In this document: positions 381 through 22,590 of the stretch, piece after piece
How positions within the stretch are numbered: position 1 is the stretch's first letter
Layout: every line of letters begins with the position of its first letter
Assembly (NCBI GenBank): GCA_030688545.1
Contig: JAUYHT010000006.1
Location: 210,001 to 242,000, forward strand
Source of the DNA: Candidatus Iainarchaeum sp.
GTDB taxonomy: Archaea > Iainarchaeota > Iainarchaeia > Iainarchaeales > VGJJ01
Direction: 5' to 3'
DNA length: 32,000 nt
The notes under the pieces: generated by a model
Databases searched by the model: none
Seen by the model: only the letters and a program-made list of their open reading frames with translations
What the model was told of the DNA's origin: nothing
Position numbers and translations under genes: made by a program

Positions 381-444
381 TCTTTCACCTTTATCGAGAA
401 GTTGTTAGTAGAATAAAAACTATACTCCCATCTGTAAGGCAAAT

Positions 445-4046: not shown

Positions 4047-4260
4047 GTTTCGGAACCTTTTTCATAAAAGGTTCATCAAAAGCATTTTGATCGAACTTTT
4101 TTCAAAAGTTCGGCTGGCCGCTGCGATTTTGATCAACCTTTTCTTAAAAGGTTGAGGGCGAGGTATCTATCTTTTTCCCCGGGCTTCATCGTAAACGGTG
4201 TTTACGATGCCCGCAAAACAGGGTTTTGCTTGGTTTTCTAAAAAGCCCGAATGATAATTG
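4047..4260. repeat. Hairpin-repeat cluster A (3 hairpin units plus conserved tail)
   Basis: Hairpins are gaacctttttcataaaaggttc (4053-4074), cgaacttttttcaaaagttcg (4092-4112) and caaccttttcttaaaaggttg (4134-4154); the last two are preceded by ttttgatc. A 9-bp perfect stem atcgtaaac/gtttacgat lies at about 4188-4208. The tail gttttctaaaaagcccgaatgataatt (4233-4259) recurs at 22559-22588. Confidence 0.8.
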
Positions 4261-6340: not shown

Positions 6341-6432
6341 AGGGGAGGGGTTGTTTTCACTCAATAAAAAGTTTTGCCTTCCGCAGGGGGGAAAACCATA
6401 CCTATTTATTCTCGGGGCCATTTCCCTTCTAG

Positions 6433-6954
6433 ATGAAAACAGAGCGTCTAGGAATAATCGCAATGGGACTGCTCCTCTTTTTGGCAGGATGCACGTCTTC
6501 AAATATACAGTCTCCGACGCAGGAACAGCAAAGCAGTTTGCCAGCGGGAGATACCACGTCAACACCCCCTCCCACGACCCCGACTACGGGCCGCTCCATG
6601 GAAGAAACATCGACATTAACCACGGGCGAATTCGATGGGCTTATCCCCAACGCGGAAACCTCGCTGATTTTCCAAGCCTTGAACAACGCAGGAATAGCTG
6701 ATGCAGCCGTAGAGTATCAAACCGAAACCGTGCTCGTGGCATTCGATTTGCCTTCCAGTATGACCAATGAGGGGGCTGCTTATTTTGCATTGGGGGTTGC
6801 TTCCAAATTCGCGCAACCCACTCAAATACTCTGGGTCCAAGTATTTGAGGGAAGTACATCCAAAACGTATTTCGTGAAAGCCGACACCGTTCAGAAATAC
6901 ACCACGGGAAAGTTGAATGAAAACCAACTAAAACTTGCGGTAACCGTGCAATAA
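6433..6954 (+). CDS. Lipoprotein with Thr/Pro-rich linker (hypothetical)
   Basis: Signal peptide plus lipobox MKTERLGIIAMGLLLFLAGC, followed by the TTSTPPPTTPTTG linker. Divergent from the 4325-6340 gene. Confidence 0.65.
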   Translation: MKTERLGIIAMGLLLFLAGCTSSNIQSPTQEQQSSLPAGDTTSTPPPTTPTTGRSMEETSTLTTGEFDGLIPNAETSLIFQALNNAGIADAAVEYQTETVLVAFDLPSSMTNEGAAYFALGVASKFAQPTQILWVQVFEGSTSKTYFVKADTVQKYTTGKLNENQLKLAVTVQ

Positions 6955-6968
6955 AATCCTATCCAAAG

Positions 6969-7055
6969 AAACCGCCAAAAGTGCTTATTCTGTCCGTCCG
7001 GCGGGACGGTCTGAAGTGTGAGTGTTTGAGGTATTAGTCCCGCCTCCCCGGCTTT
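6969..7055 (-). repeat. ICR copy 1 (distal part only)
   Basis: aaaccgccaaaa...gtccggcgggac (L arm, 6996-7007)...ctgaagtgtgagtgtttgaggtatt-agtcccgcctccccggc (core, 7036-7052). It abuts the stop codon of the PemK-like gene at 7061. Confidence 0.85.
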
Positions 7056-7060
7056 CTTTA

Positions 7061-7423
7061 TCAGGAAAGTTCATACAGTTCCTTTATTTTGGATTTAACT
7101 TCGTCCAACTTGGCTGTATGAACTTCATCGACCTGGCGCAGAATCTTGTCCTTGACCAGTACTACCGGAAAATCCGCTCGAATAAAACTCTCTTTAGCCA
7201 GCATTTTTTTCTCCGTGCTTGCATTGGTCAGAATGCAATCAAAATCATTTTTCCGAGGCTTAGAAGTTATTTTCAGCATCACGATATCAGGAGACTTAGA
7301 ATTATATTTTGCAGAGCTAACCACCAACCCTAATCGACGCTTGCTACCTTCTTGGTCCGAGTAGCGAACATCCGCCACAATGATTTGGCCCGGTTTAATG
7401 TTTGAGGAGTTCATCGGCGTCAT
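7061..7423 (-). CDS. Type II toxin, PemK/MazF-like endoribonuclease
   Basis: IKPGQIIVADVRYSDQEGSKRRLGLVVS...DIVMLKITSK matches the PemK/MazF SH3-like barrel pattern. It overlaps the upstream small antitoxin ORF. Confidence 0.65.
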   Translation of the reverse strand: MTPMNSSNIKPGQIIVADVRYSDQEGSKRRLGLVVSSAKYNSKSPDIVMLKITSKPRKNDFDCILTNASTEKKMLAKESFIRADFPVVLVKDKILRQVDEVHTAKLDEVKSKIKELYELS

Positions 7424-7613
7424 CCCAGTCTTCTAACGCATGCTTTAGTGCATATGAACGAACGGCATCACTCGAATTCTTTTCACTTTTTTCCAGCTTC
7501 TCAAGCTTGCTTTCAAAGGCTCTTCGCGCGACTTCCGTCCACTTTACATCCGAGTGCTGACGCATCTTTTCATGCATCTCATCCGGCACATTCATCGTCA
7601 TATTCGGCATCAA
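7395..7613 (-). CDS. Putative antitoxin partner of the PemK/MazF-like toxin
   Basis: 72-aa acidic protein overlapping the toxin start by 29 nt. The MNVPDEMHEKMRQHSDVKWTEVARRAFESKL pattern is RHH/antitoxin-like. Confidence 0.5.
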   Translation of the reverse strand: MMPNMTMNVPDEMHEKMRQHSDVKWTEVARRAFESKLEKLEKSEKNSSDAVRSYALKHALEDWDDADELLKH

Positions 7614-7679
7614 ATCACCTTATATAAGTAAAATAAGTAAAGGAATATTTAAGCCTATCGGGGGCAAAGCGCCAAAGCC

Positions 7680-7850
7680 GCACTGAAAAGTTAACACCAT
7701 AAAATGCGATTTTTGCCTTTTTGGTAAAATTTGGTGTTAACCGCCTCAAATATTCTGTTCCGGGAATCTTCCTGCTTTATTCACCCCCTCGCTTCTTAGC
7801 TCGGTGCAGTTAGTGAACTTAGTGTAATTGCTAACCATAGCTTACCTCCT
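7680..7850 (-). repeat. ICR copy A (diverged; carries 30-aa micro-ORF 7746-7838)
   Basis: Minus strand reads AGGAGGTAAGCT-ATG, then MVSNYTKFTNCTELRSEGVNKAGRFPEQNI*. It has the conserved CACTAACTGCACC block, and the R arm has decayed to tttgaggcggttaacacc. An extra 10-bp inverted repeat gttaacacca/tggtgttaac lies at about 7690-7745. Confidence 0.6.
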
Positions 7851-7853
7851 AAA

Positions 7854-8744
7854 CTACTTGTAACTGAGAAGCTTTTGGTGAGTATCCAGTATGTGATTCA
7901 CGGAATGTTGAAGTTCCTTTGCTGATGCTACAAATCGTTTCTGCTCAATAGTATTAGGCGAAAAATGTGCAATTCTAAGCAATTTTCCTTTTTTTGCGAT
8001 GAATGGAAGGGAAATAGTGAGGTCTTTGACACCTAAGAATGGTTTGTACAGATGGCCTGAGACTTGCACAGTCTGTTCCTTTGCATTTGTCAATCGTTCA
8101 AAAAAATCTCGAAAGGCTAAACCAGCGGCTTTGTGAGGAATTCCATGCGCACGGATAAAAGCCAACAATTCGAAATCCGTTTTGTGCGCTAATTCATCAT
8201 ATTTCTTTTCATTCGTTGAGTTGATGATTGGAATCGCCTTTCCATGAGTTCCAATACAGAAAACTTTTTTTCCAAGCACCTTTTCGTATCTCTTGGCATC
8301 CAATTCCATTCCAAAACCGAGAATATCATTACGGTTTAGTTTCAAACGCAAATAATTGGTAATTTCATCTACGGGATTGGTGACAACAATAATGCGGGTC
8401 TTTGAAGAAATCTTCTTGAGATAACGAAGAAGGTCGGCCACTGCTCCAAGATTAAATTTCAATTCATCCTGCCGAACTTCATACGTCGAACTCCTACTTA
8501 TCATACTTTCAGTACGTGCACTATCGCTAATCCCAGAAAGTGAAAGGATAATGTAATCAACTTTTTGGAGAGCTGAAAGATTCTCTAAAACGCGCACCTT
8601 CGCGCTATCCAAATCAGCTGCTAATCCTTTTGCACTTTTGGATGTACGACTGTAGAACAAAAGCTCCTTCGTCTCTTTGAGCTCAACTAAATTTTCAGCA
8701 ATAGCTCGGCCTGTTCGTCCACAGCCGATTAGTAGGATATGCAT
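7854..8744 (-). CDS. L-lactate/malate dehydrogenase family 2-hydroxyacid dehydrogenase (divergent)
   Basis: Rossmann motif MHILLIGCGRTGRAIA, then IIVVTNPVDEITN, GFGMELDAKR and the catalytic-His context IGTHGKAIP (GEHG equivalent). Confidence 0.65.
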   Translation of the reverse strand: MHILLIGCGRTGRAIAENLVELKETKELLFYSRTSKSAKGLAADLDSAKVRVLENLSALQKVDYIILSLSGISDSARTESMISRSSTYEVRQDELKFNLGAVADLLRYLKKISSKTRIIVVTNPVDEITNYLRLKLNRNDILGFGMELDAKRYEKVLGKKVFCIGTHGKAIPIINSTNEKKYDELAHKTDFELLAFIRAHGIPHKAAGLAFRDFFERLTNAKEQTVQVSGHLYKPFLGVKDLTISLPFIAKKGKLLRIAHFSPNTIEQKRFVASAKELQHSVNHILDTHQKLLSYK

Positions 8745-8785
8745 ATCAGAAAGATTCCAATTCGACCCGACTTATAAGCAATAGT

Positions 8786-8870
8786 GTCCGGTCGTCGGGA
8801 CAAGCCTGAAGCGTCAGAGAAGAAAGTATAGTCCCGCCTCCCGGACTCGCAATCGGATCTTCGGTTTTCA
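8786..8870 (-). repeat. ICR copy B (distal part)
   Basis: L arm gtccggtcgtcgggac (8786-8801), spacer, core agtcccgcctcccggact (8830-8847), then cgcaatcggatcttcgg. It starts within about 10 nt of the ATPase stop at 8881. Confidence 0.85.
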
Positions 8871-8880
8871 TTCATTTATA

Positions 8881-10158
8881 TTATTCTTCTAACAGCCATT
8901 TCCACACAGGCTTAACGTTTATTCTTTTACCGTCTTTCTGAATATTTTCTTCCTGATCAAACGTAAGGATGAGGCCTTTGCTTGCTTTTATTTCGCCCAT
9001 TGCCTCCAAAAGACCATTAATTTCCCGATCTTTAGTCGTTGGGGTAAGAGCATAGGTTACTTGTACTGCTTCCAATTCGTTTGACCGCTTGAGAATGAAA
9101 TCACATTCCTTCTTTCCCTTAAAATAAAATGTCTCCATATCTCGTCGCTTCAATTCCTGCATAACAATGGCTTCGAGTCGTTTTCCATTATCTGGATTGA
9201 ATGCAGGCGAGAGAAACGTTTGAAAAGAGTTATCCGATAAGTAAACCTTTTTGGGATTAAGCGAACGCACTTTAGCAGAATATGAGAATTTGGATGAAGA
9301 GAAGATAAAAAAGGCGTCTTCTAGGTGATTTAGATAAAGGGAAATTGTTTTTTTGCTAACTTCCGTTCCTCTCCCCTTAAGCATTTTTTCGAAAGAGGTT
9401 ATGGAAAAAAGAGACGAATTATTGTCAAGTATGTGATTCATAAGCACCTGCATAATATCTACACTCTTGACATTGTAACGTTCAACAATGTCCTTGTAAA
9501 AAGTGGTTTCATAATAGGTTTTTACCAGATCTTTTTTTTCATTCAATTCTTTTTGGGCCAAAAGAGGAAAACCGCCATAAGACATATATTCGTCAAACAA
9601 TCTAAGGAGTAATCCTTTTTTTTCGCTAAATGGAATTGTTTTATCATAGCTAAATCCTTTTAACTGTAAAAATTCTTTGAACGAAAAAGGAAGCAGGAGA
9701 ACACTCGTATATCGACCACGAAGTTCGGTAGCCACTTCCTTACTGAGAAGCTTAGAGGATGATCCGCTTAGTATAATGAAATATTTACCTGTATTATGAA
9801 GCCTTCGAATAAATTTGCTCCAAATAGGCGCTTCCTGAATCTCATCAAAAAAGAGATAATGTGGTTCCACCCCAGTCACCTCTCGGTGAGCCACAAATAA
9901 TTCATCGAGGTGGCTGGAAGAAATTCCAGCCAAACGATTATCTTCAAAATCCAAGAAGAGAATCTCATTTCGATTAACTTTTTCGAGCAATTGCTTAATC
10001 GTCAAAAACATGATGGACGTTTTACCCACCCTCCGCGGACCGATAACTGCCTGGATGCTTTCCTTACTTGGTTTTAGATGTACACTTCTCTGGATCAATT
10101 CGGGCAAGGGTTTTTCCAGCCATTCCACGATCATTCGTTTGAAAATATCCCGATACAT
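8881..10158 (-). CDS. AAA+ ATPase, DUF4143-containing (COG1373-type)
   Basis: Walker A GPRRVGKTS, Walker B-like LLFLDFEDN / YLFFDEIQ, and the C-terminal restriction-endonuclease-like region typical of this family. Confidence 0.7.
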   Translation of the reverse strand: MYRDIFKRMIVEWLEKPLPELIQRSVHLKPSKESIQAVIGPRRVGKTSIMFLTIKQLLEKVNRNEILFLDFEDNRLAGISSSHLDELFVAHREVTGVEPHYLFFDEIQEAPIWSKFIRRLHNTGKYFIILSGSSSKLLSKEVATELRGRYTSVLLLPFSFKEFLQLKGFSYDKTIPFSEKKGLLLRLFDEYMSYGGFPLLAQKELNEKKDLVKTYYETTFYKDIVERYNVKSVDIMQVLMNHILDNNSSLFSITSFEKMLKGRGTEVSKKTISLYLNHLEDAFFIFSSSKFSYSAKVRSLNPKKVYLSDNSFQTFLSPAFNPDNGKRLEAIVMQELKRRDMETFYFKGKKECDFILKRSNELEAVQVTYALTPTTKDREINGLLEAMGEIKASKGLILTFDQEENIQKDGKRINVKPVWKWLLEE

Positions 10159-10189
10159 GCTAAATTATACCCAAGATCACCTTATATAT

Positions 10190-10243
10190 GTTTCTTCATA
10201 GAAACAGTTTGACGGTTAATTGTTTCTTATAAGAAACAATTAA
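10190..10243. promoter_or_regulatory. Two adjacent palindromic operator-like sites sharing GTTTCTT/AAGAAAC half-sites
   Basis: Perfect 28-bp palindrome ttaattgtttcttataagaaacaattaa (10216-10243), plus gtttcttcatagaaac (10190-10205). They lie 32-60 nt upstream of the ATPase start at 10158 and downstream of the 88-aa gene. Confidence 0.5.
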
Positions 10244-10286
10244 ATATCACCCCCACCCCCCCAGCCAATCAAGGAGATGCATTCTT

Positions 10287-10553
10287 TCATACTTCCACGC
10301 TTTCTTGAATCAGCTTTTTCATCCTATCTTTAGGAGTATAAACCCAGATAATGCCTTTAGGAGTGTCTAAAACCATAAAGCGTTTCTCAAAATACTCAAT
10401 AATCACGTCCAAGGTTGGGCGCATTATTTTGTTACCGGCTCGTTTCAATAGCTCATAGCGAGAAAGAGGCTCTTTGGCTTCTTTGAGTATTTCTTCGACT
10501 AAAAGAACGGTTTTGAGGGTGGGGTAGTGTAGGACCTGCATAAACGTCACCAA
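10287..10553 (-). CDS. Small hypothetical protein, possibly winged-helix DNA-binding
   Basis: 88-aa ORF. The helix-rich N-terminus and beta-hairpin C-terminus (GIIWVYTP) suggest wHTH. No firm motif. Confidence 0.4.
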   Translation of the reverse strand: MVTFMQVLHYPTLKTVLLVEEILKEAKEPLSRYELLKRAGNKIMRPTLDVIIEYFEKRFMVLDTPKGIIWVYTPKDRMKKLIQESVEV

Positions 10554-10593
10554 CTACATTAATATAGACATATAACGCATATAAAGATATATT

Positions 10594-10896
10594 CTATTTG
10601 GCGTTCTTTCCGCTTGCTTTAGATAATCCCCAATACTTTATTTGACCAATGAAAAAACTGATGGTAAAAAGCACGTAAATGATAACAAAACTAAATTCAG
10701 TGAAAAAGAACCCAATATCAGCTAAATCACCGGTTGTAGATACTCTGAGTAAAAATCCTAACGAAAATAGAACCATCGGGAAAACAAAAATAGAAAGGAA
10801 ATGAAGACCCGTCTTAAAACGAGAAAGAATAGAGTAAACAAAACCAATACTCAAAAGAAGCACAAACGGAATAAAAAAAATATAAATATTGGACAT
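10594..10896 (-). CDS. Small membrane protein (3 TM), hypothetical
   Basis: 100 aa with three hydrophobic helices (IYIFFIPFVLLLSIGFVYSIL, FLSIFVFPMVLFSLGFLL, FFFTEFSFVIIYVLFTISFFIG). Confidence 0.5.
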   Translation of the reverse strand: MSNIYIFFIPFVLLLSIGFVYSILSRFKTGLHFLSIFVFPMVLFSLGFLLRVSTTGDLADIGFFFTEFSFVIIYVLFTISFFIGQIKYWGLSKASGKNAK

Positions 10897-10938
10897 ACGA
10901 TACGTTGTTGCAATACCTATTTAATGGTTACACAATCT

Positions 10939-11040
10939 ACCCGGGGGAAGACCAAAGGTTGAGTAAGTGATGGATTAGTCCCGGCTTCCCGGATTTACTT
11001 CTAAGAAACTTCCGACTTTTACCCGAGGTCTCGCTTAAAA
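10939..11040 (-). repeat. ICR copy B' (diverged, 1-nt insertion in core)
   Basis: accaaaggttgagtaagtgatggatt-agtcccggcttcccggat (core, 10977-10994), then ...cgaggtctcgcttaaaag. Confidence 0.7.
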
Positions 11041-11120
11041 GATCACACACCATAGCAAAACACCCTCCTGCGATAGTTAGTGAAGATTATCAATATAAGG
11101 AAGCAGATTGTCGGAGATAT

Positions 11121-11960
11121 ATGAAACAGATATTGCTAACAAATGACGACGGTTATCAGTCCGTTGGTTTCTACCCCTTGTTAAAGGAATTAGAAAAGAG
11201 TTTTTCTGTTACTTCGGTTGCACCGGAAAGCGAAAGGAGTTGGATAGGAAAATCGATTACAGCCAAAAAAGAATTAAAGGTCAAAAAAATAAACCTGAAT
11301 GGAATCCCAATTTATGTTTGTAGTGGAACTCCTGCCGATTGCTCTCAATTGGGCATATATGAGTTTTCAAAAAAGCGACCGGATTTAGTGGTGTCCGGCA
11401 TCAATATCGGTGCAAATGTTGGACATGGTAGAATACTGAGTTCGGGCACAATTGGTGCAGCAATGGAAGCGGCTATTGATGAAGTAAAGGCACTCGCCTC
11501 CTCACTTCAACTTCCCGATGATATACGCAAGTCAGCGGATTTCTTTCACCCCAAAAATTATTCCATGTTTGAGAATGCAGCAAAAATAACAGCTAAAATT
11601 GCAAAAATTGTGGTTCAATACCCATTTGAGAAAGGTGTGGACATTCTTTCTATCAACATACCATTTGAGGCCACCGTTGAGAATAAAATCCAGATTACGA
11701 GGCCACATCGAGAACCCTATCACCGACTTTTTGCGAAAAAAAACGAAGGATATAGTAAGAAATCAATCGGTGATTCGTCTGCTCGCGGCAAAATAGATTT
11801 CACATACAAAATCGGCACAGACAGTTATGCACTTTCTAAGAATAAAATTTCAATCACCCCTATTAGCTTGAACCTTTCACGCGAAGAATCGTTCAAAAAA
11901 CTAAATCAGCTTCTCAAGAAGAACTGGTCGTCGGGACAAGAGCAGAGCTTGAGTAGGTGA
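11121..11960 (+). CDS. surE: 5'/3'-nucleotidase SurE
   Basis: N-terminal hallmark MKQILLTNDDGYQSVG, plus SGINIGAN and SGTIGAAMEA motifs. The last 12 or so codons (NWSSGQEQSLSR*) are read through the antisense of ICR copy C. Confidence 0.8.
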   Translation: MKQILLTNDDGYQSVGFYPLLKELEKSFSVTSVAPESERSWIGKSITAKKELKVKKINLNGIPIYVCSGTPADCSQLGIYEFSKKRPDLVVSGINIGANVGHGRILSSGTIGAAMEAAIDEVKALASSLQLPDDIRKSADFFHPKNYSMFENAAKITAKIAKIVVQYPFEKGVDILSINIPFEATVENKIQITRPHREPYHRLFAKKNEGYSKKSIGDSSARGKIDFTYKIGTDSYALSKNKISITPISLNLSREESFKKLNQLLKKNWSSGQEQSLSR

Positions 11961-12092
11961 ATGGATTAGTCCCGCCTCCCGGACTCGAAATCGGGAAATC
12001 TCTGGTCTTTTGGAAGATAGGCTCGGCTGAAGCCTCGCGAAGAGTGTAGTTGGTGTACTTTGGGATGTTCTCTGAACTCATCTCAGCCTCCC
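11914..12092 (-). repeat. ICR copy C (near full length; carries 55-aa micro-ORF 11914-12081)
   Basis: Minus strand reads GGGAGGCTGAG-ATG, then MSSENIPKYTNYTLREASAEPIFQKTRDFPISSPGGGTNPFTYSSSALVPTTSSS*. Core is at 11968-11985. Confidence 0.85.
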
Positions 12093-12093
12093 T

Positions 12094-12369
12094 TCAATAA
12101 ATGTTGTCGTGATGATCATAGTCCGCAAAAAGAACAAACTTTTTCGCTTTGTCATATTGAAAAGTTAAAACAAAGTGTTTGTCGATATGAACACGTTTGA
12201 AATCTTTCATCGTGTGGCGCAGGTTCTTGTAGTGTTCAATGGTATATTCATCCGAGTTCACAATTTGTTTAATTTTCTTGTTAATGATTAAAACTTTCTT
12301 GGGATCTCGCTTGGCTAAATTCCGTAGAATATCCTTCAGTTTGTCAGATAGGTCGTATTCCAGTGGCAT
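12094..12369 (-). CDS. Type II toxin, RelE/ParE superfamily (YafQ/RelE-like mRNA interferase)
   Basis: 91 aa. The pattern ...KKIKQIVNSDEYTIEHYKNLRHTMKDFKRVHIDKHFVLTFQYDKAKKFVLFADYDHHDNIY is the typical RelE-fold C-terminus. It sits 6 nt downstream of a small antitoxin-like ORF. Confidence 0.65.
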   Translation of the reverse strand: MPLEYDLSDKLKDILRNLAKRDPKKVLIINKKIKQIVNSDEYTIEHYKNLRHTMKDFKRVHIDKHFVLTFQYDKAKKFVLFADYDHHDNIY

Positions 12370-12375
12370 AAGAAA

Positions 12376-12636
12376 TCACAAGCCGCAGAGTTCATCTAGC
12401 TCTTTATCCGACATTCTGCGATTGGGGTGCTTACGATAATGCTCCTCCGTAATCTTCAAAATTTTTTTAGCATAGGCTTCGCTGGCTTCTTGTTCTACAA
12501 ACTCATCTCCAAACATCTCGGCAAACTTATCCAAAGCCTCGCCTTTATCGCGCAAACCATACTTTTCCTTAACTACCCCCAAGACTCGGGAAGTATAGCC
12601 CTTCACTTTCGTATTAATGGCAACCGAATCACCCAT
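12376..12636 (-). CDS. Putative antitoxin (DUF2683-like)
   Basis: 86 aa. VAINTKVKGYTSRVLGVVKEKYGLRDKGEALDKFAEMF resembles the archaeal DUF2683/RHH-type small proteins. Position is immediately upstream of the RelE-like toxin. Confidence 0.5.
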   Translation of the reverse strand: MGDSVAINTKVKGYTSRVLGVVKEKYGLRDKGEALDKFAEMFGDEFVEQEASEAYAKKILKITEEHYRKHPNRRMSDKELDELCGL

Positions 12637-12687
12637 TTAATATCACCTAATATAGAATTAGTTGAACTAATTAATAAGGCTTTGGAC

Positions 12688-12800
12688 GCGAACCGCCAAA
12701 AAGAGCTCTATTCCGAAAATCTTCCGTTTCTATCCGAAACCTCAATTACGGGTTCGGTGTGGTTAGTGCACTTAGTGATATTCAATTGATTCATCTTTCC
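12688..12800 (-). repeat. ICR copy D (internally deleted; 28-aa micro-ORF 12708-12794)
   Basis: GGAAAG-ATG, then MNQLNITKCTNHTEPVIEVSDRNGRFSE*. This is joined directly to the distal TTTTTGGCGGTT motif (plus strand aaccgccaaaaa, 12691-12702). The arm/spacer segment is missing. Confidence 0.65.
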
Positions 12801-12848
12801 AATGTAGGAAATCCATACTTTTAATAATACTCCAAGGGATATAGGACT

Positions 12849-13382
12849 ATGAATAGCGGTAGAAAACGTCCAGGACCAAGGAGCAATGGCAGAAGGGGAT
12901 TGTTCCCAAAACCATTATCTTATTACCTCGGGAAGAAAAGAGGCAAGCAAGCTCGTAACCCAGCGGAAGACTTCATCGCTGGAAGATCCTCTCATCTAAT
13001 TGCTCAGGATTTCGAAATGGCCCTTCTTAATAGACAAATTAATAGGCTAAATGCTAAACGTCGAGCCAAAATAATAACCCCTAAAGAAAGGGAAACTCTT
13101 TCATTTGCGCTTATTGAAAGAGCTACTCTCCAACTTCCAATCAGCAATTTACGGTGGGCTTTAGAAACAGCATTGGCATTCCATTCAGCAATTTGGAACC
13201 ACCAAAATAATACACCTATTGGACAATACACTCCTTTATCATATAGCAAAGAGCATTGGACTGAACAATTAAATTTAATGATTCAATATTACCCACACTT
13301 CCGAAAATATGGTATAGGAAAAAAATATTTTGATTCATTCGTAAGACTGACACGCCAATTAATTGACACGCCAATTGATTGA
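12849..13382 (+). CDS. Hypothetical protein with highly basic N-terminus
   Basis: 177-aa ORF opposite in strand to most of the array. No recognisable motif. Confidence 0.4.
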   Translation: MNSGRKRPGPRSNGRRGLFPKPLSYYLGKKRGKQARNPAEDFIAGRSSHLIAQDFEMALLNRQINRLNAKRRAKIITPKERETLSFALIERATLQLPISNLRWALETALAFHSAIWNHQNNTPIGQYTPLSYSKEHWTEQLNLMIQYYPHFRKYGIGKKYFDSFVRLTRQLIDTPID

Positions 13383-13427
13383 ATGAAAGCATTGAAGTAA
13401 TTTTTTATTCCACCATAAGCATATCTG

Positions 13428-13544
13428 TCTTCGGGGCGATACCGAAGGTTGAGTATGTGAAATAGGATTAGTCCCGCATCCAGGATTCTATTCCGGGAAT
13501 CTCTCGTTTTTTCTTGATTGCTCGCTTCTAAGCTCGCCAACCAT
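13428..13544 (-). repeat. ICR copy E
   Basis: ccgaaggttgagtatgtgaaataggatt-agtcccgcatccaggatt (core, 13470-13487), then ...gggaatctctcg...ctcgcttctaagctcgcc. The ATG at 13544-13542 directly follows the Nudix TAA. The micro-ORF is truncated (MVGELRSEQSRKNERFPE*). Confidence 0.8.
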
Positions 13545-14096
13545 TTATTTCATCCACTTGTAAATTTTTTTGCGCTCCCGATAGAGCTTGAGAATGCCTG
13601 TTGCAATAAAGTCGTTTTTTATTTTTCCAGATAGAACCATACGATAGGCTGTTAATAATGACTTTGGATGGACTGAAATGTCCTCATCTTCATCCTTCTC
13701 AAGGGGGTCGTATTCCAAATCGGTCGCCAGAAAGGCCGCCAGTTTCCATTCTAAAATTCCTAATCTGTCTTTTTCAATAAAAAGTTTCATTTTCTTTGCA
13801 CGATAACCCGTTTCTTCGCGCAGTTCACGCTGAGCTGCTATATGAATATTTCTTTCCTTATCCACCCGTCCGCCCGGGACTCGCCAATCGTACTCGCTTG
13901 TTTTTTGGCGATACTCACGGGTAATCAAAACACGCTTTTGCTTATCGAAAGCAAAAACCACTACACTAGGGGGACGAACAGCGCGTTCAAAAATTGTTTT
14001 TTTACCACTTGGAAAAACCGCAGAAGCCTGTTCCACCCGGAAAAACTTGCCTTTGAATACGGACTTGTATTTTCCAACTTTTACTCGACCAACCAT
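13545..14096 (-). CDS. Nudix hydrolase (ADP-ribose pyrophosphatase-like)
   Basis: Nudix box GGRVDKERNIHIAAQRELREETGY (GX5EX7REUXEEXGU). The N-terminal beta region is typical of the ADPR pyrophosphatase subfamily. Confidence 0.8.
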   Translation of the reverse strand: MVGRVKVGKYKSVFKGKFFRVEQASAVFPSGKKTIFERAVRPPSVVVFAFDKQKRVLITREYRQKTSEYDWRVPGGRVDKERNIHIAAQRELREETGYRAKKMKLFIEKDRLGILEWKLAAFLATDLEYDPLEKDEDEDISVHPKSLLTAYRMVLSGKIKNDFIATGILKLYRERKKIYKWMK

Positions 14097-14128
14097 ACCA
14101 CTAACTCCTTCAAAATCTGGTTAATAAA

Positions 14129-14280
14129 TCCGGTCGTCGGGACGAGTCGTAAGTGTCACAGAAGTAGAAATTAGTCCAGCCTCCCGGTAATGCACCAGGG
14201 GATCTTTCTTTGAATACAGGCTCGGTTGCTGCCTCGCTGACGTTGGTGCAGTAGTGATGATCGACCAACGTATCTCATCC
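14129..14280 (-). repeat. ICR copy F (near full length)
   Basis: L arm tccggtcgtcgggac (14129-14143), core agtccagcctcccggtaa (14173-14190), then gaatacaggctcggttgctgcctcgc and ggtgcagtagtgatg. The conserved frame has only a TTG start and reads ...VDHHYCTNVSEAATEPVFKERSPGALPGGWTN... Confidence 0.85.
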
Positions 14281-14293
14281 AATCCAATATTTA

Positions 14294-14764
14294 CTATTGG
14301 AAACGATAAATTATTCCTCTATTGCCAAGTTGAGCCTTCTGGAAATTAGGGTCCTCGCACACAACAAAATCGGTCTTTTTGTCTGCAAAATTCGTCTTTC
14401 GATAAAGCTCTGCTGGAACTAATCGATTAATATCCCAAACGAGTATTACTCTATCAGCTTTACCCTTGTAACGTTGACCCCTACCCAATGAAAGGATTTT
14501 ATTAAATCCATTTTTCGGCAGCGGAACTCGTGAGAAAAATCGTTCTCTTTTCCAACCACTTACACTGCTGACCCCACTCTTTGTCAACCTATTTTTGTTC
14601 TGTCCAAGTGCACGCCGAAGTTTAGCCAGACGACCTTCAGCAGCGGATTTTTGTCCCGCTGTCATTTTAGCACTAGGACGACTCATTCGCAATTGAAAGA
14701 CTCTCAAATCGTTTTGACGTCTCCTTATATTACGCGAAGCTGATGATATTCTCGACGTAGGCAT
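14294..14764 (-). CDS. Hypothetical protein, Arg/Lys-rich N-terminal half
   Basis: 156-aa ORF filling one inter-repeat unit. No recognisable motif. Confidence 0.45.
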   Translation of the reverse strand: MPTSRISSASRNIRRRQNDLRVFQLRMSRPSAKMTAGQKSAAEGRLAKLRRALGQNKNRLTKSGVSSVSGWKRERFFSRVPLPKNGFNKILSLGRGQRYKGKADRVILVWDINRLVPAELYRKTNFADKKTDFVVCEDPNFQKAQLGNRGIIYRFQ

Positions 14765-14822
14765 GCAAGTAAAGAAAATTTAGTAGTTTAAAAAGATTTC
14801 CTGAATTCTAACGAAAAATGTA

Positions 14823-14926
14823 GTCCACCAGGCGGTCCGGCCTGAAGTGTGAGTGTTTGAGATATTAGTCCCGCCTCCCGGACTTGCAATCGGAGAATCT
14901 CTGATTTTCTGGAATAAAGGTTCGAT
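14823..14926 (-). repeat. ICR copy G (5' part replaced by HicA gene end)
   Basis: L-arm variant gtccaccaggcggtcc, spacer cctgaagtgtgagtgtttgagatatt, core agtcccgcctcccggact (14867-14884), then tgcaatcggagaatctctgattttctggaataaaggttcg. Confidence 0.85.
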
Positions 14927-14934
14927 AGGAAGAC

Positions 14935-15141
14935 CTATTTGAAATCCTCTTCCGTCAACCCAGTTGCCTCAATAATCGATTTCAACGTCTTCGGGACAAT
15001 GACTTTATGATTTGGTACCGTAACGGGCGGTCGCTCTGGGTGCTGAAGATGAATATGGCTGCCTTTTTGGTTTTTGATAGAGTAGCCTTTCTTCAAGAGA
15101 ATACGCAAAACTTCTTTGCCAGAAACAACAGGAAGTTTCAT
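14935..15141 (-). CDS. hicA: HicA family toxin (YcfA-like mRNA interferase)
   Basis: 68 aa with GKEVLRILLKKGYSIKNQKGSHIHLQHP...VTVPNH. The KGSH motif and overall HicA pattern are present. It overlaps the upstream HicB by 4 nt. Confidence 0.8.
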   Translation of the reverse strand: MKLPVVSGKEVLRILLKKGYSIKNQKGSHIHLQHPERPPVTVPNHKVIVPKTLKSIIEATGLTEEDFK

Positions 15142-15353
15142 ACGGTAACAGAAACTTTCGTGACTTCCTTGTCACTATGGAGAGGGACACCCGATTCCGC
15201 CAATGACTCCAAATGCAACGCTATGGCCTCTTTGATATTTTCCAGCGCTCCCTCACGAGTTTCTCCTTGACTAATACATCCGGGCAACGCTGGAACGGTC
15301 ACGGTATACCAGCCCGATTCACTGTCTTTTTCCAAATAAACTTTCCAATCCAT
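15138..15353 (-). CDS. hicB: HicB/UPF0150 family antitoxin
   Basis: 71 aa. YTVTVPALPGCISQGETREGALENIKEAIALHLESL is the classic UPF0150/HicB N-terminal domain. Confidence 0.8.
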   Translation of the reverse strand: MDWKVYLEKDSESGWYTVTVPALPGCISQGETREGALENIKEAIALHLESLAESGVPLHSDKEVTKVSVTV

Positions 15354-15395
15354 ATCAATACCCCCCTATTAGTCAATAAAAATCAATGCCTAACA

Positions 15396-15485
15396 AACCG
15401 CCAAATACGCCTTTATGCGTCCGGAGGGATGATGGCGAAGGTTGAGTCTATGAACAATGAAAGTCCCGCCTCTCTCGATGCCACA
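15396..15485 (-). repeat. ICR copy H (distal part, decayed core)
   Basis: aaaccgccaaat...gtccggagggat...gcgaaggttgagtctatgaacaatga-agtcccgcctctctcgat (core, 15462-15479). It begins 7 nt from the NMNAT stop. Confidence 0.75.
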
Positions 15486-15491
15486 GGCAGG

Positions 15492-16001
15492 TTATCCCCT
15501 AATTCCATATGCTTCTTTGATCCGTTTTATTCCATTAAATTTTTTGATTAGTCTTGCAACCGATTTTCCAGTAAATTGCTCCCAGGATTGGTTAAAAGCG
15601 ATGGCGTCCCTAATCTTAGTGGAGGAAATGGTCCCCGCCCGTTTTATTCGTTTAATTCTTACCTTTTTTCGAATGAGTTTGATAACCGTTTCTTTATCAG
15701 TATACAATACATCAAATTGGCCGCAGCACTCAAATAGATTTTGAATACCCACAGAATATGATTTTCCATCCATAACTACGACAACTTTCACTTTATTTGA
15801 ATCGATTCCCTCTTCTTTCAAATAGGCTTGCATCATTTTTCTTTTTTCAGTTCCATCAAATGGGTTCCTTTTTGTATTTCTAAATTCAGCACTACCAACT
15901 ACTACAAATAATTTATCTACTTCTTTCAAAATTCCCTTTATGACACGCAAATGCCCTTTATGCGGAGGATTAAATCGACCCCAATAAACCCCAATCATCA
16001 C
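15492..16001 (-). CDS. Nicotinamide-nucleotide adenylyltransferase (archaeal-type NMNAT)
   Basis: GVYWGRFNPPHKGHL (the (H/T)xGH nucleotidyltransferase motif in archaeal NMNAT context) and the C-terminal ISSTKIRD (ISSTxxR) motif. 169 aa. Confidence 0.8.
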   Translation of the reverse strand: MMIGVYWGRFNPPHKGHLRVIKGILKEVDKLFVVVGSAEFRNTKRNPFDGTEKRKMMQAYLKEEGIDSNKVKVVVVMDGKSYSVGIQNLFECCGQFDVLYTDKETVIKLIRKKVRIKRIKRAGTISSTKIRDAIAFNQSWEQFTGKSVARLIKKFNGIKRIKEAYGIRG

Positions 16002-16060
16002 TCAATCATTTATCCGAAATTAATAAACGATGCTGAAAAGTATCTGCAAATTCGAACACT

Positions 16061-16200
16061 CTAATAAATTATAGTCCCGCCTCCCGGACTTGCGACCTGG
16101 GAATTTCCGGTCTTTTGGAATACAGGTTCGGCTTCTGCCTCACTATGAGTGTATTTAGTGCAGTTTATGCTATTCGACTGACTCATCTTATCTTTCCCAA
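16061..16200 (-). repeat. ICR copy I (proximal part; 41-aa micro-ORF 16061-16186)
   Basis: GGGAAAGATAAG-ATG, then MSQSNSINCTKYTHSEAEAEPVFQKTGNSQVASPGGGTIIY*. Core agtcccgcctcccggact is at 16073-16090. The distal spacer and L arm are absent. Confidence 0.85.
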
Positions 16201-16217
16201 GCTTCCGGCAGTTTCTA

Positions 16218-16403
16218 TTATGTTAATAGTTTTTCAATTGCATAGCCGCCCACATAGTCTTCTTTTGTCAGAGGATTAGGTATCCCCCTTCGCTTGAGCT
16301 CATCCATCATTTCCCAAATACTTATCCCAGCCATCTCCGCGGCCCTTCCTATGCTCACTTTGCTTTCGGAGTATTGCTTGACCGCTTTTTCTAGATTATT
16401 CAT
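16218..16403 (-). CDS. UPF0175 family antitoxin-like protein
   Basis: 61 aa. KVSIGRAAEMAGISIWEMMDELKRRGIP is the UPF0175 HTH signature. It overlaps the HicA stop by 4 nt. Confidence 0.7.
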   Translation of the reverse strand: MNNLEKAVKQYSESKVSIGRAAEMAGISIWEMMDELKRRGIPNPLTKEDYVGGYAIEKLLT

Positions 16404-16630
16404 AGTTTCTCAACTAACTTATAGAATTCTTCTTTTTCCATTTTCAATCCTTTTTTGATAATCTTATCTCGAATTCCCGTTCCAACGGGTTCGTTTCCAT
16501 GAATGGGGATGGTCAGCACCCTTCCATCCGCATGTTCAAACTGATGATGACTTCCTTTAACTCTTTTTTCAGTAAACCCAAGCTTGATGACAATCTTGGC
16601 TAACTCTTTGCCGGAAAAGACTTTGGACAA
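16400..16630 (-). CDS. hicA: HicA family toxin
   Basis: 76 aa with GKELAKIVIKLGFTEKRVKGSHHQFEHADGRVLTIPIHGNEPV. Confidence 0.8.
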   Translation of the reverse strand: MSKVFSGKELAKIVIKLGFTEKRVKGSHHQFEHADGRVLTIPIHGNEPVGTGIRDKIIKKGLKMEKEEFYKLVEKL

Positions 16631-16635
16631 AGTCG

Positions 16636-16866
16636 TTACACCTCAACGACTTGCAATCCTACAAACCGAGAGGATGAAACTTCATGCTCATTATTACGTT
16701 CCAGACAAAGTTCAATTACTTCCTTAATCCGCTTCAATAATTCATCCATTGTTTTGGCCTGGGTGTAGCACCCTTCCAACTCAGGAACTTCCCCCACAAG
16801 CCAACCCTCGTCGTCTTTTTCAATAACCATCGTAAAGGTCCGTTTAGCCATTTTTTCGTTTGTCAT
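16636..16866 (-). CDS. hicB: HicB/UPF0150 family antitoxin
   Basis: 76 aa with FTMVIEKDDEGWLVGEVPELEGCYTQAKTMDELLKRIKEVIELCLE. Confidence 0.8.
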   Translation of the reverse strand: MTNEKMAKRTFTMVIEKDDEGWLVGEVPELEGCYTQAKTMDELLKRIKEVIELCLERNNEHEVSSSRFVGLQVVEV

Positions 16867-16906
16867 AGTATGACTCTCCAGTTACAGAATAAAACCTTTT
16901 CTTATG

Positions 16907-17085
16907 AAAACCGCCAAAAAACGTTTATTTGTCCGGCGGGACGAAACCGAAGGTTGAGTCTGTGAATAGAATTAGTCCCGCCTCCCGGACTTGCACCGGG
17001 GATCTTTCTTTGAATACAGGCTCGGCTGCTGCATCGCTTATCTTTGCTAAACTCTAACACACCTTTTGGTGCAGATAGTGAATTA
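16907..17085 (-). repeat. ICR copy J (best-preserved full-length copy)
   Basis: aaaaccgccaaaaaacg, L arm gtccggcgggac (16931-16942), spacer gaaaccgaaggttgagtctgtgaatagaatt, core agtcccgcctcccggact (16974-16991), then tgcaccggggatctttctttgaatacaggctcggctgctgcatcgc and ggtgcagatagtg. Confidence 0.9.
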
Positions 17086-17111
17086 TAAAGAAATATAGCG
17101 TTCGTTATGCA

Positions 17112-17963
17112 ATGAAAAGCACATACAAAAGAATTGGCGCTAGCATTCATACACGGTGGAGAACTTGGAGAAAAGCGCAGAGGCGGAAAGAAGCGATACA
17201 AGTTGGTTCAAAAATTGGGGAAGGAGCACAAGGAGTTATTCGTAGGGGACAATTTTTTCGGAATGAACGTTCACGTCCGATGATAGTAAAAAGATTCAAG
17301 GGAACACCAAGAACGGCAAATCATGAAGCCGTTTCCTCCTACTATCACCTGAAATTATTACATCAACTAGGATTTCCAACTACCCCCTTTTTTCATCTTT
17401 TTCGCGATCCTAGCAATAAAGCCTTTTCGTTAATGTTGAGTGATTTAACACGAAGACGAAACGGTGAAGAATACAATATTGTCCACGATTTACAAGAAAT
17501 ACAAGACGAGAACTATCGCAATTTAACCACCAAAGGGATGCATCCTAAAGACCTCACTGAAAGAACTATGCACTATTTTGTTAAGGGAAAGGACAGAATG
17601 ATTAGTAATCCAGATGAGATTGATAAGCAAATACAAGAACTTAATAGTAAAGCCAGTAAGATTGGTATTACGCTTGGTAGAGAAGCATTTGTGGTTGTTG
17701 TGAATAACAAAACAAGACATGGACATGTTGTTATAAATGATGTAGCTGAAACAAATATTCCACAAAAATTATTCCCGGAAAACTTTATTCGAAAAGAGCA
17801 CAGAAAAGATTTTTTTAATTTGAGAACAAATTGGAATTCAGCTTTTGAAAATGCTGTTATTATCGCTCTTAGTTTTCCAATAAGCGTACCTTTCCTAATT
17901 TATGAAAAAATTAATGAACAAATAATCGAGTACCGCTATAGACGGGAAAAAAAAGGAAAATAG
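17112..17963 (+). CDS. Hypothetical protein, possibly a divergent protein-kinase-like fold
   Basis: 283 aa. It has a glycine-loop-like IGEGAQGVI followed by PMIVKRFKG (VAIK-like Lys), and later RHGHVVINDVAE (a possible catalytic-loop analogue). Weak motif-level evidence only. Confidence 0.4.
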   Translation: MKSTYKRIGASIHTRWRTWRKAQRRKEAIQVGSKIGEGAQGVIRRGQFFRNERSRPMIVKRFKGTPRTANHEAVSSYYHLKLLHQLGFPTTPFFHLFRDPSNKAFSLMLSDLTRRRNGEEYNIVHDLQEIQDENYRNLTTKGMHPKDLTERTMHYFVKGKDRMISNPDEIDKQIQELNSKASKIGITLGREAFVVVVNNKTRHGHVVINDVAETNIPQKLFPENFIRKEHRKDFFNLRTNWNSAFENAVIIALSFPISVPFLIYEKINEQIIEYRYRREKKGK

Positions 17964-18009
17964 TGAAGATGACACAAGAAAGCGGGAACGATTGATGAAA
18001 GACCAAAAG

Positions 18010-18130
18010 TGTCCGCCGTAAAAAAAGTTAACATTCATTGTCCGACGAGACAGCCCGATGTGTGAGAGTTTGAGGTATAGTCCCGCCTCCCGGACTTGCA
18101 CCGGGGATCTTCCGGTCTACAGCCGGACGC
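18010..18130 (-). repeat. ICR copy K (terminal copy at the GC-rich boundary)
   Basis: gtccgccgtaaaaaaag, L arm gtccgacgagac (18040-18051), spacer, core agtcccgcctcccggact (18079-18096), then tgcaccggggatcttccggtc. Confidence 0.85.
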
Positions 18131-18133
18131 ATT

Positions 18134-18375
18134 AGCTACTATGCTAAGGCGGGAACTCTTCCCATCTCAGTTATCGCGAGCCTTTTCCAAAAAGGCTCAG
18201 CTACTCTACCAAGGCGGGAACCCTTTCCGCACTCACTTTTTTGATCACCTTTTTTTCTAAAAAGGTCACCTTTTTGATCAACCTTTTTTTCTAAAAGGTC
18301 ACCTTTTTGATCAACCTTTTTTCTAAAAAGGTTGAGCTACTTTGGTAAGGCGGAAATCTTAATTAACTCCATACA
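18134..18375. repeat. Hairpin-repeat cluster B (3 'agctact...aaggcggga' units, 1 isolated hairpin, 3 tandem 33-bp hairpin units)
   Basis: Units are at 18134-18169, 18199-18235 and 18335-18375. Hairpin gagccttttccaaaaaggctc is at 18178-18198. Tandem units tttttgatca(c/a)cttttttt-ctaaaa(a)ggt.. are at 18237-18270, 18271-18303 and 18304-18336. Confidence 0.85.
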
Positions 18376-18741
18376 CCGAACAAGGGGACTCGAAAAGATT
18401 TGCCGAGTCAGAGTGGTATTGCGAAGCAATACCACGACCCCGAACGACCATATGGAATTTGGTCCGGCAAAAGGATTGGGTCCAGAAAAGCCTTTTAATA
18501 GGGCGGGGAAAAAACCCTGCGTGATTCTGGATTAAGGGTTTTGAGAGGGGATATGGAAAAGGGAGGATTTGGATATTTAGAGTAAGGATAAGGATCCCCT
18601 CTTCTTTCCCATTGCCCACATAACCCCCTAGGTTCACGGACGAAAATGCCTTCCGTCGATTGTTTAATTTCGATTCGTCGCGGGGTGAAGGCTTATATTG
18701 GGATTGCTTTTCCCTCCCGCCATACCTGGGGAGGTATTTCA

Positions 18742-22436: not shown

Positions 22437-22590
22437 CGCCTCTTTTTTCTAAAAAGAGCCGTTTTGATCAATCCTTTTCATAAAAAGGGCCCGTTTTTTG
22501 ATCGAATTGTTTTCTAAAAAGGAGTCGTTTTTTGATCGAACTTTTTTTTAAAAAGTTCGTTTTCTAAAAAGCCCAAATGGGGATAATTCA
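22437..22590. repeat. Hairpin-repeat cluster C (about 4.5 tandem units of roughly 33 bp plus conserved tail)
   Basis: Units are ctcttttttctaaaaagag (22440-22458), gttttgatcaatccttttcataaaaagggccc, gttttttgatcgaattgttttctaaaaaggagtc and gttttttgatcgaacttttttttaaaaagttc. The tail gttttctaaaaagcccaaatggggataatt (22559-22588) is homologous to 4233-4259. Confidence 0.85.

Follow-up and report, generated by a model that had tools for sequence, protein, structure and literature searches.

The window analysed here, a 32,000-nt stretch of contig JAUYHT010000006.1 (positions 210,001-242,000) from Candidatus Iainarchaeum sp., contains an intact tRNA-Tyr gene and, downstream of it, 12 gene units of 0.5-2.2 kb each, set apart by 13 co-oriented copies of one repeat family. 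We consider it likely that this array arose by tandem accretion of small integrase-less units at the tRNA-Tyr 3′ end of this Diapherotrites/Iainarchaeota (DPANN) archaeon, with the units mobilised in trans, and that it is integron-like in function. An initial annotation, made from the sequence alone, had described small cassettes with one co-oriented site each and unrelated cargo rich in toxin-antitoxin (TA) genes, an architecture that our analysis bore out.

The tRNA-Tyr (GTA) gene was located by ARAGORN at 18080-18153 on the minus strand and scored 63.2 bits with the Rfam tRNA model; an Rfam scan of the array found nothing besides this tRNA. By established tRNA-identity rules, its C1-G72 pair and short variable loop identify it as an archaeal-type tRNA-Tyr. 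The repeats are ~90-170 nt long and, read on the minus strand, which carries most cassette genes, consist of three parts, termed P, O and P′. The left arm, P, carries a Shine-Dalgarno (SD)-like motif and an ATG followed by a frame that is kept open into the core in many copies. The core, O, is the tRNA-derived T-arm and 3′ acceptor strand, …AGTCCGGGAGGCGGGACTA. The right arm, P′, is non-coding and ~45-80 nt long; many right arms include GTCCCGCCGGAC, which repeats the core imperfectly in inverse orientation, and some have TTTTGGCGGTTT at their end. From the tRNA outward, the features of the window are as follows (aa, amino acids; wHTH, winged helix-turn-helix).

18080-18153, minus strand: intact tRNA-Tyr (GTA), the anchor (ARAGORN, Rfam); upstream synteny of tRNA-Pro, MutY and a ferredoxin-like gene as in relatives.
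18031-18118, minus strand: copy K, the tRNA 3′ part with an element-type P′, forming the tRNA-proximal junction B-O-P′ (nhmmer E = 1.9e-18, model positions 42-133).
17112-17963, plus strand: unit 12, a 283-aa open reading frame (ORF) inverted relative to the array; no Pfam, NCBIfam or PHROGs match.
16922-17081, minus strand: copy J, with left arm, perfect core (0 mismatches) and a right arm with the inverted core copy and TTTTGGCGGTTT (nhmmer E = 2.9e-30).
16218-16866, minus strand: unit 11, HicB, HicA and UPF0175 (Pfam).
16049-16189, minus strand: copy I, with a left arm holding an ATG and open frame to the core (…SPGGGT), perfect core and truncated right arm (nhmmer E = 3e-19).
15492-16001, minus strand: unit 10, cytidylyltransferase-like (NMNAT-like) protein (Pfam CTP_transf_like, E = 2.8e-15).
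15410-15497, minus strand: copy H, left half of the core degenerate, right arm common to the L010 HicAB cassette (nhmmer E = 1e-13; three-way junction alignment).
14935-15353, minus strand: unit 9, HicB-HicA pair (Pfam).
14818-14932, minus strand: copy G, with short left arm, perfect core and right arm (nhmmer E = 4e-25).
14294-14764, minus strand: unit 8, a 156-aa ORF; no family match.
14123-14278, minus strand: copy F, with full left arm, diverged core and right arm (nhmmer E = 4e-23).
13545-14096, minus strand: unit 7, Nudix hydrolase (Pfam NUDIX, E = 3.4e-15).
13419-13544, minus strand: copy E, left arm with an ATG and a TAG just before the core; core with 3 mismatches (nhmmer E = 4e-27).
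12849-13382, plus strand: unit 6, an inverted 177-aa ORF; no family match.
12706-12794, minus strand: copy D, left arm only, with the core and most of the right arm deleted and TTTTTGGCGGTTC kept (left-arm profile E = 3e-13).
12094-12636, minus strand: unit 5, genes of 86 aa and 91 aa, the latter weakly YhaV/RelE-like (Pfam E = 0.005).
11922-12086, minus strand: copy C, full left arm with SD motif and ATG in frame to SPGGGT, perfect core and right arm (nhmmer E = 1.7e-29).
11121-11960, plus strand: unit 4, SurE 5′-nucleotidase, inverted, its 3′ end entering copy C (Pfam SurE, E = 8.5e-51).
10931-11085, minus strand: copy B′, with diverged core AATCCGGGAAGCCGGGACT (nhmmer E = 1.2e-24).
8881-10896, minus strand: unit 3, a 100-aa membrane protein, an 88-aa wHTH protein and an AAA_14/DUF4143 ATPase (Pfam).
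8781-8869, minus strand: copy B, with short left arm, perfect core and right arm (nhmmer E = 9e-19; junction alignment).
7854-8744, minus strand: unit 2, Rossmann-fold dehydrogenase (Ldh_1_N-like; Pfam E = 4.2e-9).
7741-7830, minus strand: copy A, left arm and a degenerate core remnant, the remainder being the GTTAACACCA…TGGTGTTAAC palindrome (left-arm profile E = 1.5e-9).
7061-7613, minus strand: unit 1, VapB-like antitoxin and PemK/MazF toxin (Pfam PemK_toxin, E = 1.1e-12; NCBIfam VapB, E = 1.9e-5).
6987-7060, minus strand: copy 1, core with 2 mismatches and right arm, the last of the dense array (nhmmer E = 2e-17).
443-530, minus strand: copy c0, isolated and degenerate, core with 2 mismatches and partial arms, the most distal copy (nhmmer E = 7e-17).

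The 13 same-direction copies span 6987-18118, and c0 is a 14th, degenerate one; all are intergenic or lie at gene ends. In the window, the core AGTCCCGCCTCCCGGACT had nine matches at ≤3 mismatches, every one on the plus strand (7036, 8830, 11968, 13470, 14867, 16073, 16974 and 18079, plus 476), compared with an expectation of 0.02 from dinucleotide shuffles. A repeat profile searched with nhmmer found 12 copies, all on the minus strand, with E-values from 1e-13 to 3e-30, and recovered the more diverged cores at 10977, 14173 and 15462. Copies A and D lack the core, but a profile made from the left arm alone, from which the two had been left out, still detected both (D at 12794-12706, E = 3e-13; A at 7830-7755, E = 1.5e-9). 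A perfect or near-perfect core was present in seven of the 13 copies, and its 19-nt form was identical in six. These searches confirmed the initial annotation in its count of 13 co-oriented copies of one family and in its description of copies A and D as diverged or deleted. Eight of the core positions that it listed were matched at ≤3 mismatches, the three diverged ones stood by profile only, and the match at 476 was not in its list. What it missed was the start of the array, where copy K is the 3′ end of the real tRNA-Tyr gene. The order from copy 1 to copy J was the same in a second, independent assembly of this sample from Logan (L002, 12.8 kb; L-numbers denote the contigs or loci of relatives or assemblies that were compared with the window).

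When the window and its relatives were scanned with the repeat profile, multi-copy arrays occurred only downstream of tRNA-Tyr. The initial annotation had raised the alternative that the repeat is scattered through the genome, but no copies were found in ~60 kb of other DPANN DNA (L038-L042) or in the 8 kb left of the window; the repeat is therefore not dispersed, and an element resembling repetitive extragenic palindromes or miniature inverted-repeat transposable elements was ruled out, since copies lie only downstream of tRNA-Tyr. Copy c0 lies 6.5 kb past copy 1, where GC is low (36-43%), on the far side of the genes for a PRC-barrel protein and an AI-2E transporter. It corresponds to L037:3509-3596 and is followed by a backbone gene, DUF1428, which in L016 lies downstream of tRNA-Tyr; over the next 8 kb (L037) the repeat did not recur. 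A 17.7-kb island may once have had its outer end at copy c0.

The core of copy K coincides with the T-arm and 3′ acceptor strand of the tRNA-Tyr gene. Copy K consists of the tRNA 5′ part, O and P′, and the internal copies of P-O-P′, the layout expected from serial integration of circular P-O-P′ units into one tRNA core. Because the repeats are copies of the tRNA-Tyr 3′ end with element-borne arms, the array belongs with tandemly accreted tRNA-targeting integrative elements, and tRNA-Tyr is its anchor and primary attachment site. The likeness of the core to the tRNA dropped with rank away from it (Spearman -0.57, p = 0.04), which fits tRNA-proximal insertion and outward ageing. The pairing of core and right arm, GTCCGG(GAG)GCGGGAC / GTCCCGCCGGAC, gave a predicted DNA hairpin with z = -2.1 to -3.2 in five of 12 copies that was absent or weak in the other seven, so that an attC-like fold has support in under half of them.

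Several smaller sequence features accompany the tRNA and the repeats. Tandem units of ~33 bp, TTTTGATC(A/G)A(C/A)C…TTTTTTCTAAAAAGG, occurred two to four per site and only between genes (4083-4149, 18216-18331 and 22439-22568). One TTTTGATC block lies directly upstream of tRNA-Tyr, and a similar motif precedes tRNA-Tyr in L010; these units may be promoter or regulator-binding elements. Interleaved with them, upstream of the real gene, the 5′ end of tRNA-Tyr (acceptor strand and D arm, ~22 nt) recurs twice in partial form (18199-18228 and 18335-18364), which 3′-end integration does not predict. In copy A, a perfect palindrome with 10-bp arms and a 32-nt loop (GTTAACACCA…TGGTGTTAAC, 7690-7741) takes the place of core and right-arm spacer. 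Some right arms carry, at the end nearest the cargo, the motif AAACCGCCAAAA (TTTTGGCGGTTT on the gene strand; 6970-6981, 12691-12702, 15396-15407 and 16908-16919). It lies just upstream of a TA operon in three of the four cases and also occurs in the L010 and L019 arrays, and may serve TA cassettes as an operator or promoter element.

We scanned the 19-nt core over one genome per species and obtained 19 loci, mostly from DPANN metagenome-assembled genomes (MAGs) assigned to Candidatus Iainarchaeum, 'uncultured archaeon' and one Woesearchaeota. A scan of viral contigs for the core returned 0 matches. Upstream of tRNA-Tyr the relatives keep tRNA-Pro, MutY and a ferredoxin/pterin-binding protein at 52-58% amino-acid identity. 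Downstream of it, the repeat profile detected five copies in L019, four to five in L010+L015, and two each in L011, L004, L007, L021 and L006. Three loci (L009, L014 and L016) are empty sites, where tRNA-Tyr is directly followed by the native flank and a conserved 161-aa gene. The last array copy in L004 and L007 is P-O fused to this native flank and the 161-aa gene (79-99% amino-acid identity), and the relatives accordingly show a tandem B-O-P′ … P-O-P′ … P-O-B′ layout. The empty sites and the terminal joints of P-O with native flank indicate that the arrays are clean insertions between the tRNA and its native neighbour, the empty and occupied sites being those of relatives outside the window's own population.

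Integrases were found at the same position in two relatives. In each, a 350-aa Phage_integrase ORF (E ~1e-18) starts inside the tRNA-Tyr 3′ end (L012:1274-2326 and L005:2691-3743) and reads across the core as …SPGGGT…. The family is large in DPANN and Bathyarchaeia, with 3068 matches at E ≤ 1e-10, and the N-termini of many members are read-through of tRNA 3′ ends. A PDB sequence search with the integrase returned XerA and XerD as the best matches, XerH as well, and IntI4 weakly (E = 1e-3); the SSV1 integrase chain was not returned at E ≤ 1e-3. The best NCBIfam match was the archaeal XerA model (86 bits, under its cut-off of 220), and the integron-integrase model TIGR02249 gave 41.7 and 41.8 bits compared with a cut-off of 265. 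Judged by these similarities, the integrases are classed as Xer-like and not as integron integrases. Only the tRNA-proximal elements of L012 (8.1 kb) and of L005/L034 (~9.5 kb) encode an integrase, and there was none among the 43 array ORFs of relatives. The only in-frame start of the integrated L012 integrase ORF is an ATG in the tRNA-Tyr gene, at the junction of D-stem and anticodon-stem (L012:1274-1330, L005:3743-3690), and the integrated copy could possibly be translated from inside the tRNA gene. A divergent 404-aa ORF beside the tRNA in the window (18646-19860) was rejected as an integrase candidate: it has no recombinase domain by Pfam, NCBIfam or PHROGs and, with its signal-peptide-like N-terminus, is a secreted protein.

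The 8.1-kb element provided an occupied and empty pair of sites. L012 and L004 are adjacent parts of one contig, bridged by L027 at 100% identity, and delimit this integrase element between the tRNA core and the next core. In L026, a contig from the same groundwater well, the tRNA is joined straight to the sequence past the element at 99.96% identity. The sole overlap at the L026 versus L012+L004 joint is the 28 shared nt of the core, so that the pair is cut exactly there. A second element of ~9.5 kb was assembled from L034 and L021, bridged by L035; its distal left arm reads MNHMLNSTNYTNSTKSVDSAPRPQSPGGGT, and this arm and the integrase of the element join across the core into one continuous in-frame ORF. 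At least nine distinct left arms keep ATG…SPGGGT in the frame of the integrase. This shared frame suggests that the left arm derives from a split integrase gene of the SSV (Sulfolobus spindle-shaped virus) type, also called 'suicidal', of which it would be the N-terminal portion. A small protein encoded by the repeat was rejected as an alternative: copies F, J, B′ and others in the window are frameshifted or without ATG, and the database held only three such ORFs of 62-75 aa, all from the same arrays. We therefore read the left-arm frame as a remnant of a coding sequence and not as a gene.

Cassettes are shared between genomes that are otherwise distant. Cassette proteins were 78-99% identical across genomes, compared with ~53% (52-58%) for backbone proteins, and cassette order differed. 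The ATPase of unit 3 was 85% identical to its L010 counterpart, and the wHTH and ATPase genes together matched L010 at 77% nucleotide identity over 1725 nt, with the match ending in the core; the wHTH protein was 83-89% identical across six loci. Unit 9 HicAB and its L010 counterpart shared 93-96% amino-acid identity and 84.5% nucleotide identity over 534 nt, again ending in the core. HicB of unit 11 was 98.7% identical to L006, UPF0175 78% identical to L011, and a unit 5 gene 69% identical to an L007 cassette gene. At the junction between the ATPase and HicB in L010, the side of the repeat that faces the ATPase resembles window copy B and the side that faces HicB resembles window copy H, with the changeover lying within the core. 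Cassettes therefore behave as units made of the right part of the core, P′, cargo, P and the left part of the core. Cassettes and integrase-bearing elements have the same core and, in L021, also the same left-arm type within one array. The comparison with related MAGs that the initial annotation had proposed thus supported site-specific gain and reshuffling of repeat-bounded units.

A 316-bp module within unit 3 (10276-10591) contains only the wHTH gene of 84-89 aa and occurs once per array in seven arrays (the window, L004, L006, L010, L011, L019 and L021) at 81-86% nucleotide identity. Both of its neighbours vary, and usually no repeat adjoins it. Single occurrence in all seven arrays (83-89% identity) made the 88-aa wHTH protein a candidate for an excisionase or regulator specific to the arrays, a role that we rejected because homologues of 67-71% identity occur in ordinary chromosomal contexts without repeats and with varied downstream genes.

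The tRNA origin of the core, the site-specific building of the array and the sharing of cassettes with breakpoints in the core are established by these observations. In kind, our best reading of the array is tandem accretion with cis-mobilizable elements. In the mechanism that we propose, a tyrosine (Xer-like) integrase would recombine the core of a circular unit (P-O-P′-cargo) with the core in the tRNA gene. The integrase would come from 8-10 kb elements that use the same site, as encoded in relatives. The tRNA would be regenerated and the new unit placed beside it, and older units would be displaced outward, where their cores would decay. Any two cores could recombine, leading to the excision or reshuffling of single units or blocks, with the tRNA in the role of the integron attI and P-O-P′ in that of attC. 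Single integrase-less cassettes would have been moved in trans by such an integrase and would still be mobile.

Several observations weigh against this mechanism. Neither a recombinase nor an integrase was found among the window ORFs with Pfam, NCBIfam or PHROGs, the window covering 14 kb to the right of the tRNA, and there was no integrase within 8 kb left of the window (L037); the initial annotation was right that the window holds no tyrosine recombinase, which tblastn also supported. No circular cassette junction was found, nor any single-cassette presence/absence difference between near-identical strains, and the sole exact occupied/empty pair concerns the integrase-bearing 8.1-kb element, not a single cassette. 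The cassette encoding uracil-DNA glycosylase (UDG), a wHTH protein and a 117-aa protein has different right-arm spacers in L004 and L019, so part of the exchange between repeats is due to homologous recombination or gene conversion. The mechanism also does not explain where the right arm P′ comes from. For the left arm, a search of 5.8 billion proteins with a profile of its peptide brought up no full-length integrase that begins in this way, the distal arm of the L012 element has a stop codon two codons before the core, and a TTG beyond the core is a possible start of the L005 integrase, which together call for caution over a split-integrase origin.

Among rival explanations, the one that survives best is that the array is a fossil, its units being decayed stumps of separate 8-10 kb integrase elements that had integrated at tRNA-Tyr and been stripped by deletion of their integrase and most cargo, with no cassette movement today. 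Full-size integrase elements do occupy this site in relatives, archaeal elements have been documented to re-use att sites in tandem (PMC6563490, PMC8371274), the distal cores are degenerate, copies A and D are without a core, and the left arms resemble integrase N-terminal remnants, some with stops or frameshifts. However, tblastn found no integrase remnant, C-terminal or other, in the window, and all internal junctions have a common non-coding P′ instead of integrase sequence, which independent deletions would not produce twelve times. Moreover, the seven perfect or near-perfect cores have not decayed, and small units recur at the high amino-acid identities given above in distant genomes, next to other neighbours and with breakpoints in the core. 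We consider a fossil array unlikely.

Tandem accretion of mobile units also has to be weighed against homologous recombination only, in which the units were laid down once and the repeats of 90-170 nt serve as homology patches for RecA/RadA-type exchange, with no site-specific recombinase acting on cassettes. The length of the repeats suffices for homologous exchange, one and the same cassette was seen with different right-arm spacer types, and a switch of similarity in the most conserved segment would be expected from this process too. It does not account for arrays of relatives whose start coincides exactly with the tRNA core and whose last copy is P-O joined to native flank, for the occupied/empty pair cut within the 28-nt core, or for an integrase ORF that overlaps the same core. 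The exact array ends, the 28-nt cut and the overlapping ORF together point to site-specific recombination here, at least for array building, and homologous recombination as the only process seems to us very improbable. That the array is a true integron, or a set of clustered attC sites without an integron integrase (CALIN), is least credible and close to excluded: the cassette-like architecture, TA-rich cargo and an imperfect inverted repeat between core and right arm that folds in 5/12 copies would suit it, and archaeal integrons exist mostly as integrase-less attC clusters (PMC9668308), but RYYYAAC…GTTRRRY occurs in only one of the 13 repeats, as a palindromic match (shuffled mean, 0.22 regions), the repeat core is a tRNA 3′ end, the integrases score 42 bits on a model with a cut-off of 265 and have XerA/XerD as their best solved relatives, and the gene beside the array start encodes a secreted protein and not a recombinase. 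A canonical integron was thus ruled out by the integrase model scores and the absent attC motifs. The family assignment to integrons in the initial annotation did not hold, there being no IntI and the integrases of relatives falling far below the model cut-off. Its observation that core sites of the form RYYYAAC/GTTRRRY are absent held for 12 of the 13 repeats, and its caveat that this may be a different gene-capture system and not a canonical integron proved correct.

The tandem accretion that we favour has close parallels in bacteria. In Dehalococcoides, genomic islands at ssrA accrete in tandem at the tmRNA gene and include integrase-less units (PMC3146451), and in streptococci integrative and conjugative elements accrete in tandem with cis-mobilizable elements (PMC5704250). 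As at the locus studied here, an intact small-RNA gene stands at one end, direct repeats of its 3′ end lie between foreign units, some units are without recombination genes and are thought to be moved by the integrase of a neighbour, and the number and content of units vary among strains. The locus differs in that its units are 0.5-2.2 kb long and hold one gene or TA pair, compared with 10-30 kb there, in that none of 12 units carries an integrase, in its DPANN host, and in its long three-part P-O-P′ site compared with a repeat of 20 bp. In Dehalococcoides the enzyme is a serine recombinase, unlike the tyrosine recombinase here.

Sedentary chromosomal integrons and attC clusters (PMC9668308) share with this array one co-oriented site per small cassette that is homogeneous within the array, insertion apparently at one primary site with newer cassettes proximal, unrelated TA-rich cargo, cassettes common to distant hosts, and a local integrase that is often missing. 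Unlike them, the array has no IntI, no attI beside an integrase gene and no R/L-box attC motifs. Its primary site is a tRNA gene, and its recombination site comes from the tRNA 3′ end and, probably, the 5′ end of an integrase gene. Many of its cassettes are also likely to be self-expressed, and three are inverted.

With the type I integrases of SSV type (PMC7253208, PMC8371274), the integrases of the relatives share an att core that is the 3′ part of a tRNA, an integrase ORF that crosses the core, and a short ATG-started in-frame ORF, int(N)-like, at the opposite end of the element. They differ in their Xer-like sequence without an SSV1 integrase match in the PDB search, in their hosts, which are mesophilic groundwater and lake DPANN archaea and not hyperthermophiles, and in that no intact full-length gene was found to prove the split. 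[quoted passage not shown] The re-use of att sites in tandem has been noted for archaea in reviews (PMC6563490, PMC8371274). We found no description in the literature of dozen-unit arrays of single-gene integrase-less cassettes at a tRNA gene in DPANN, although coverage was incomplete and this is an absence of evidence only.

The array has a GC content of ~40%, compared with ~51% in its flanks. Pfam confirmed most of the cargo labels of the initial annotation, namely PemK, an Ldh_1_N-type dehydrogenase, the AAA_14+DUF4143 ATPase, SurE, Nudix, HicA/HicB twice, NMNAT-like and UPF0175. Its 'RelE' label had weak support only (YhaV-like, E = 0.005), and the two-gene module of unit 5 is probably a TA pair; its 'kinase-like' label for unit 12 found no family match. 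In unit 11, UPF0175 is joined to HicB-HicA with no repeat between them. A repeat directly follows HicBA in L006, and UPF0175 has its own repeat in L011, so unit 11 looks like two cassettes that were probably fused by loss of a site. The array cargo of relatives likewise consists of TA genes and assorted enzymes (43 array ORFs). Besides TA pairs, the cargo leans to nucleotide handling, with SurE, Nudix and NMNAT-like proteins in the window, and UDG twice and a nucleoside 2-deoxyribosyltransferase in relatives, which is noteworthy in DPANN cells that rely on a host. Between copy 1 and the low-GC PRC/AI-2E region lies a block of 50% GC (4325-6954) that encodes a 746-aa cysteine-rich secreted protein with an internal duplication of ~189 nt (4757-5047) and a 173-aa lipoprotein-like ORF; neither protein had a family match or a homologue in related loci.

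Taken to its fullest extent, the accretion model would describe a previously undescribed DPANN gene-cassette platform, equivalent to integrons in function and unrelated to them in evolution, a proposal that we make tentatively and with clearly less confidence than the accretion itself. Its capture site would be tRNA-Tyr, and its cassettes would be integrase-less units of 0.5-2 kb with sites of ~90-170 nt that combine the 3′ end of the tRNA with the 5′ end cut off from a split integrase gene. Xer-like integrases acting in trans from 8-10-kb elements would capture, stockpile and reshuffle these cassettes and exchange them among distant hosts.

The genomes of DPANN archaea are tiny and the cells host-dependent, and the ways in which accessory genes enter and leave these genomes are poorly understood. 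If our interpretation is true, a dense tRNA-anchored array of single genes, common to genomes that are otherwise ~53% identical, would be a concrete mechanism of gene flux in DPANN. It would also represent a second, independent route to an integron-like store of cassettes, built from ordinary tRNA-integrase parts, and would bear on an old problem, the origin of cassette systems and of their recombination sites. Mesophilic archaea would be added to the hosts of split-integrase-like arrangements and of tandem integration. The cargo of TA pairs and of SurE, Nudix and NMNAT-like proteins, with UDG and nucleoside deoxyribosyltransferase in relatives, fits a symbiont lifestyle.

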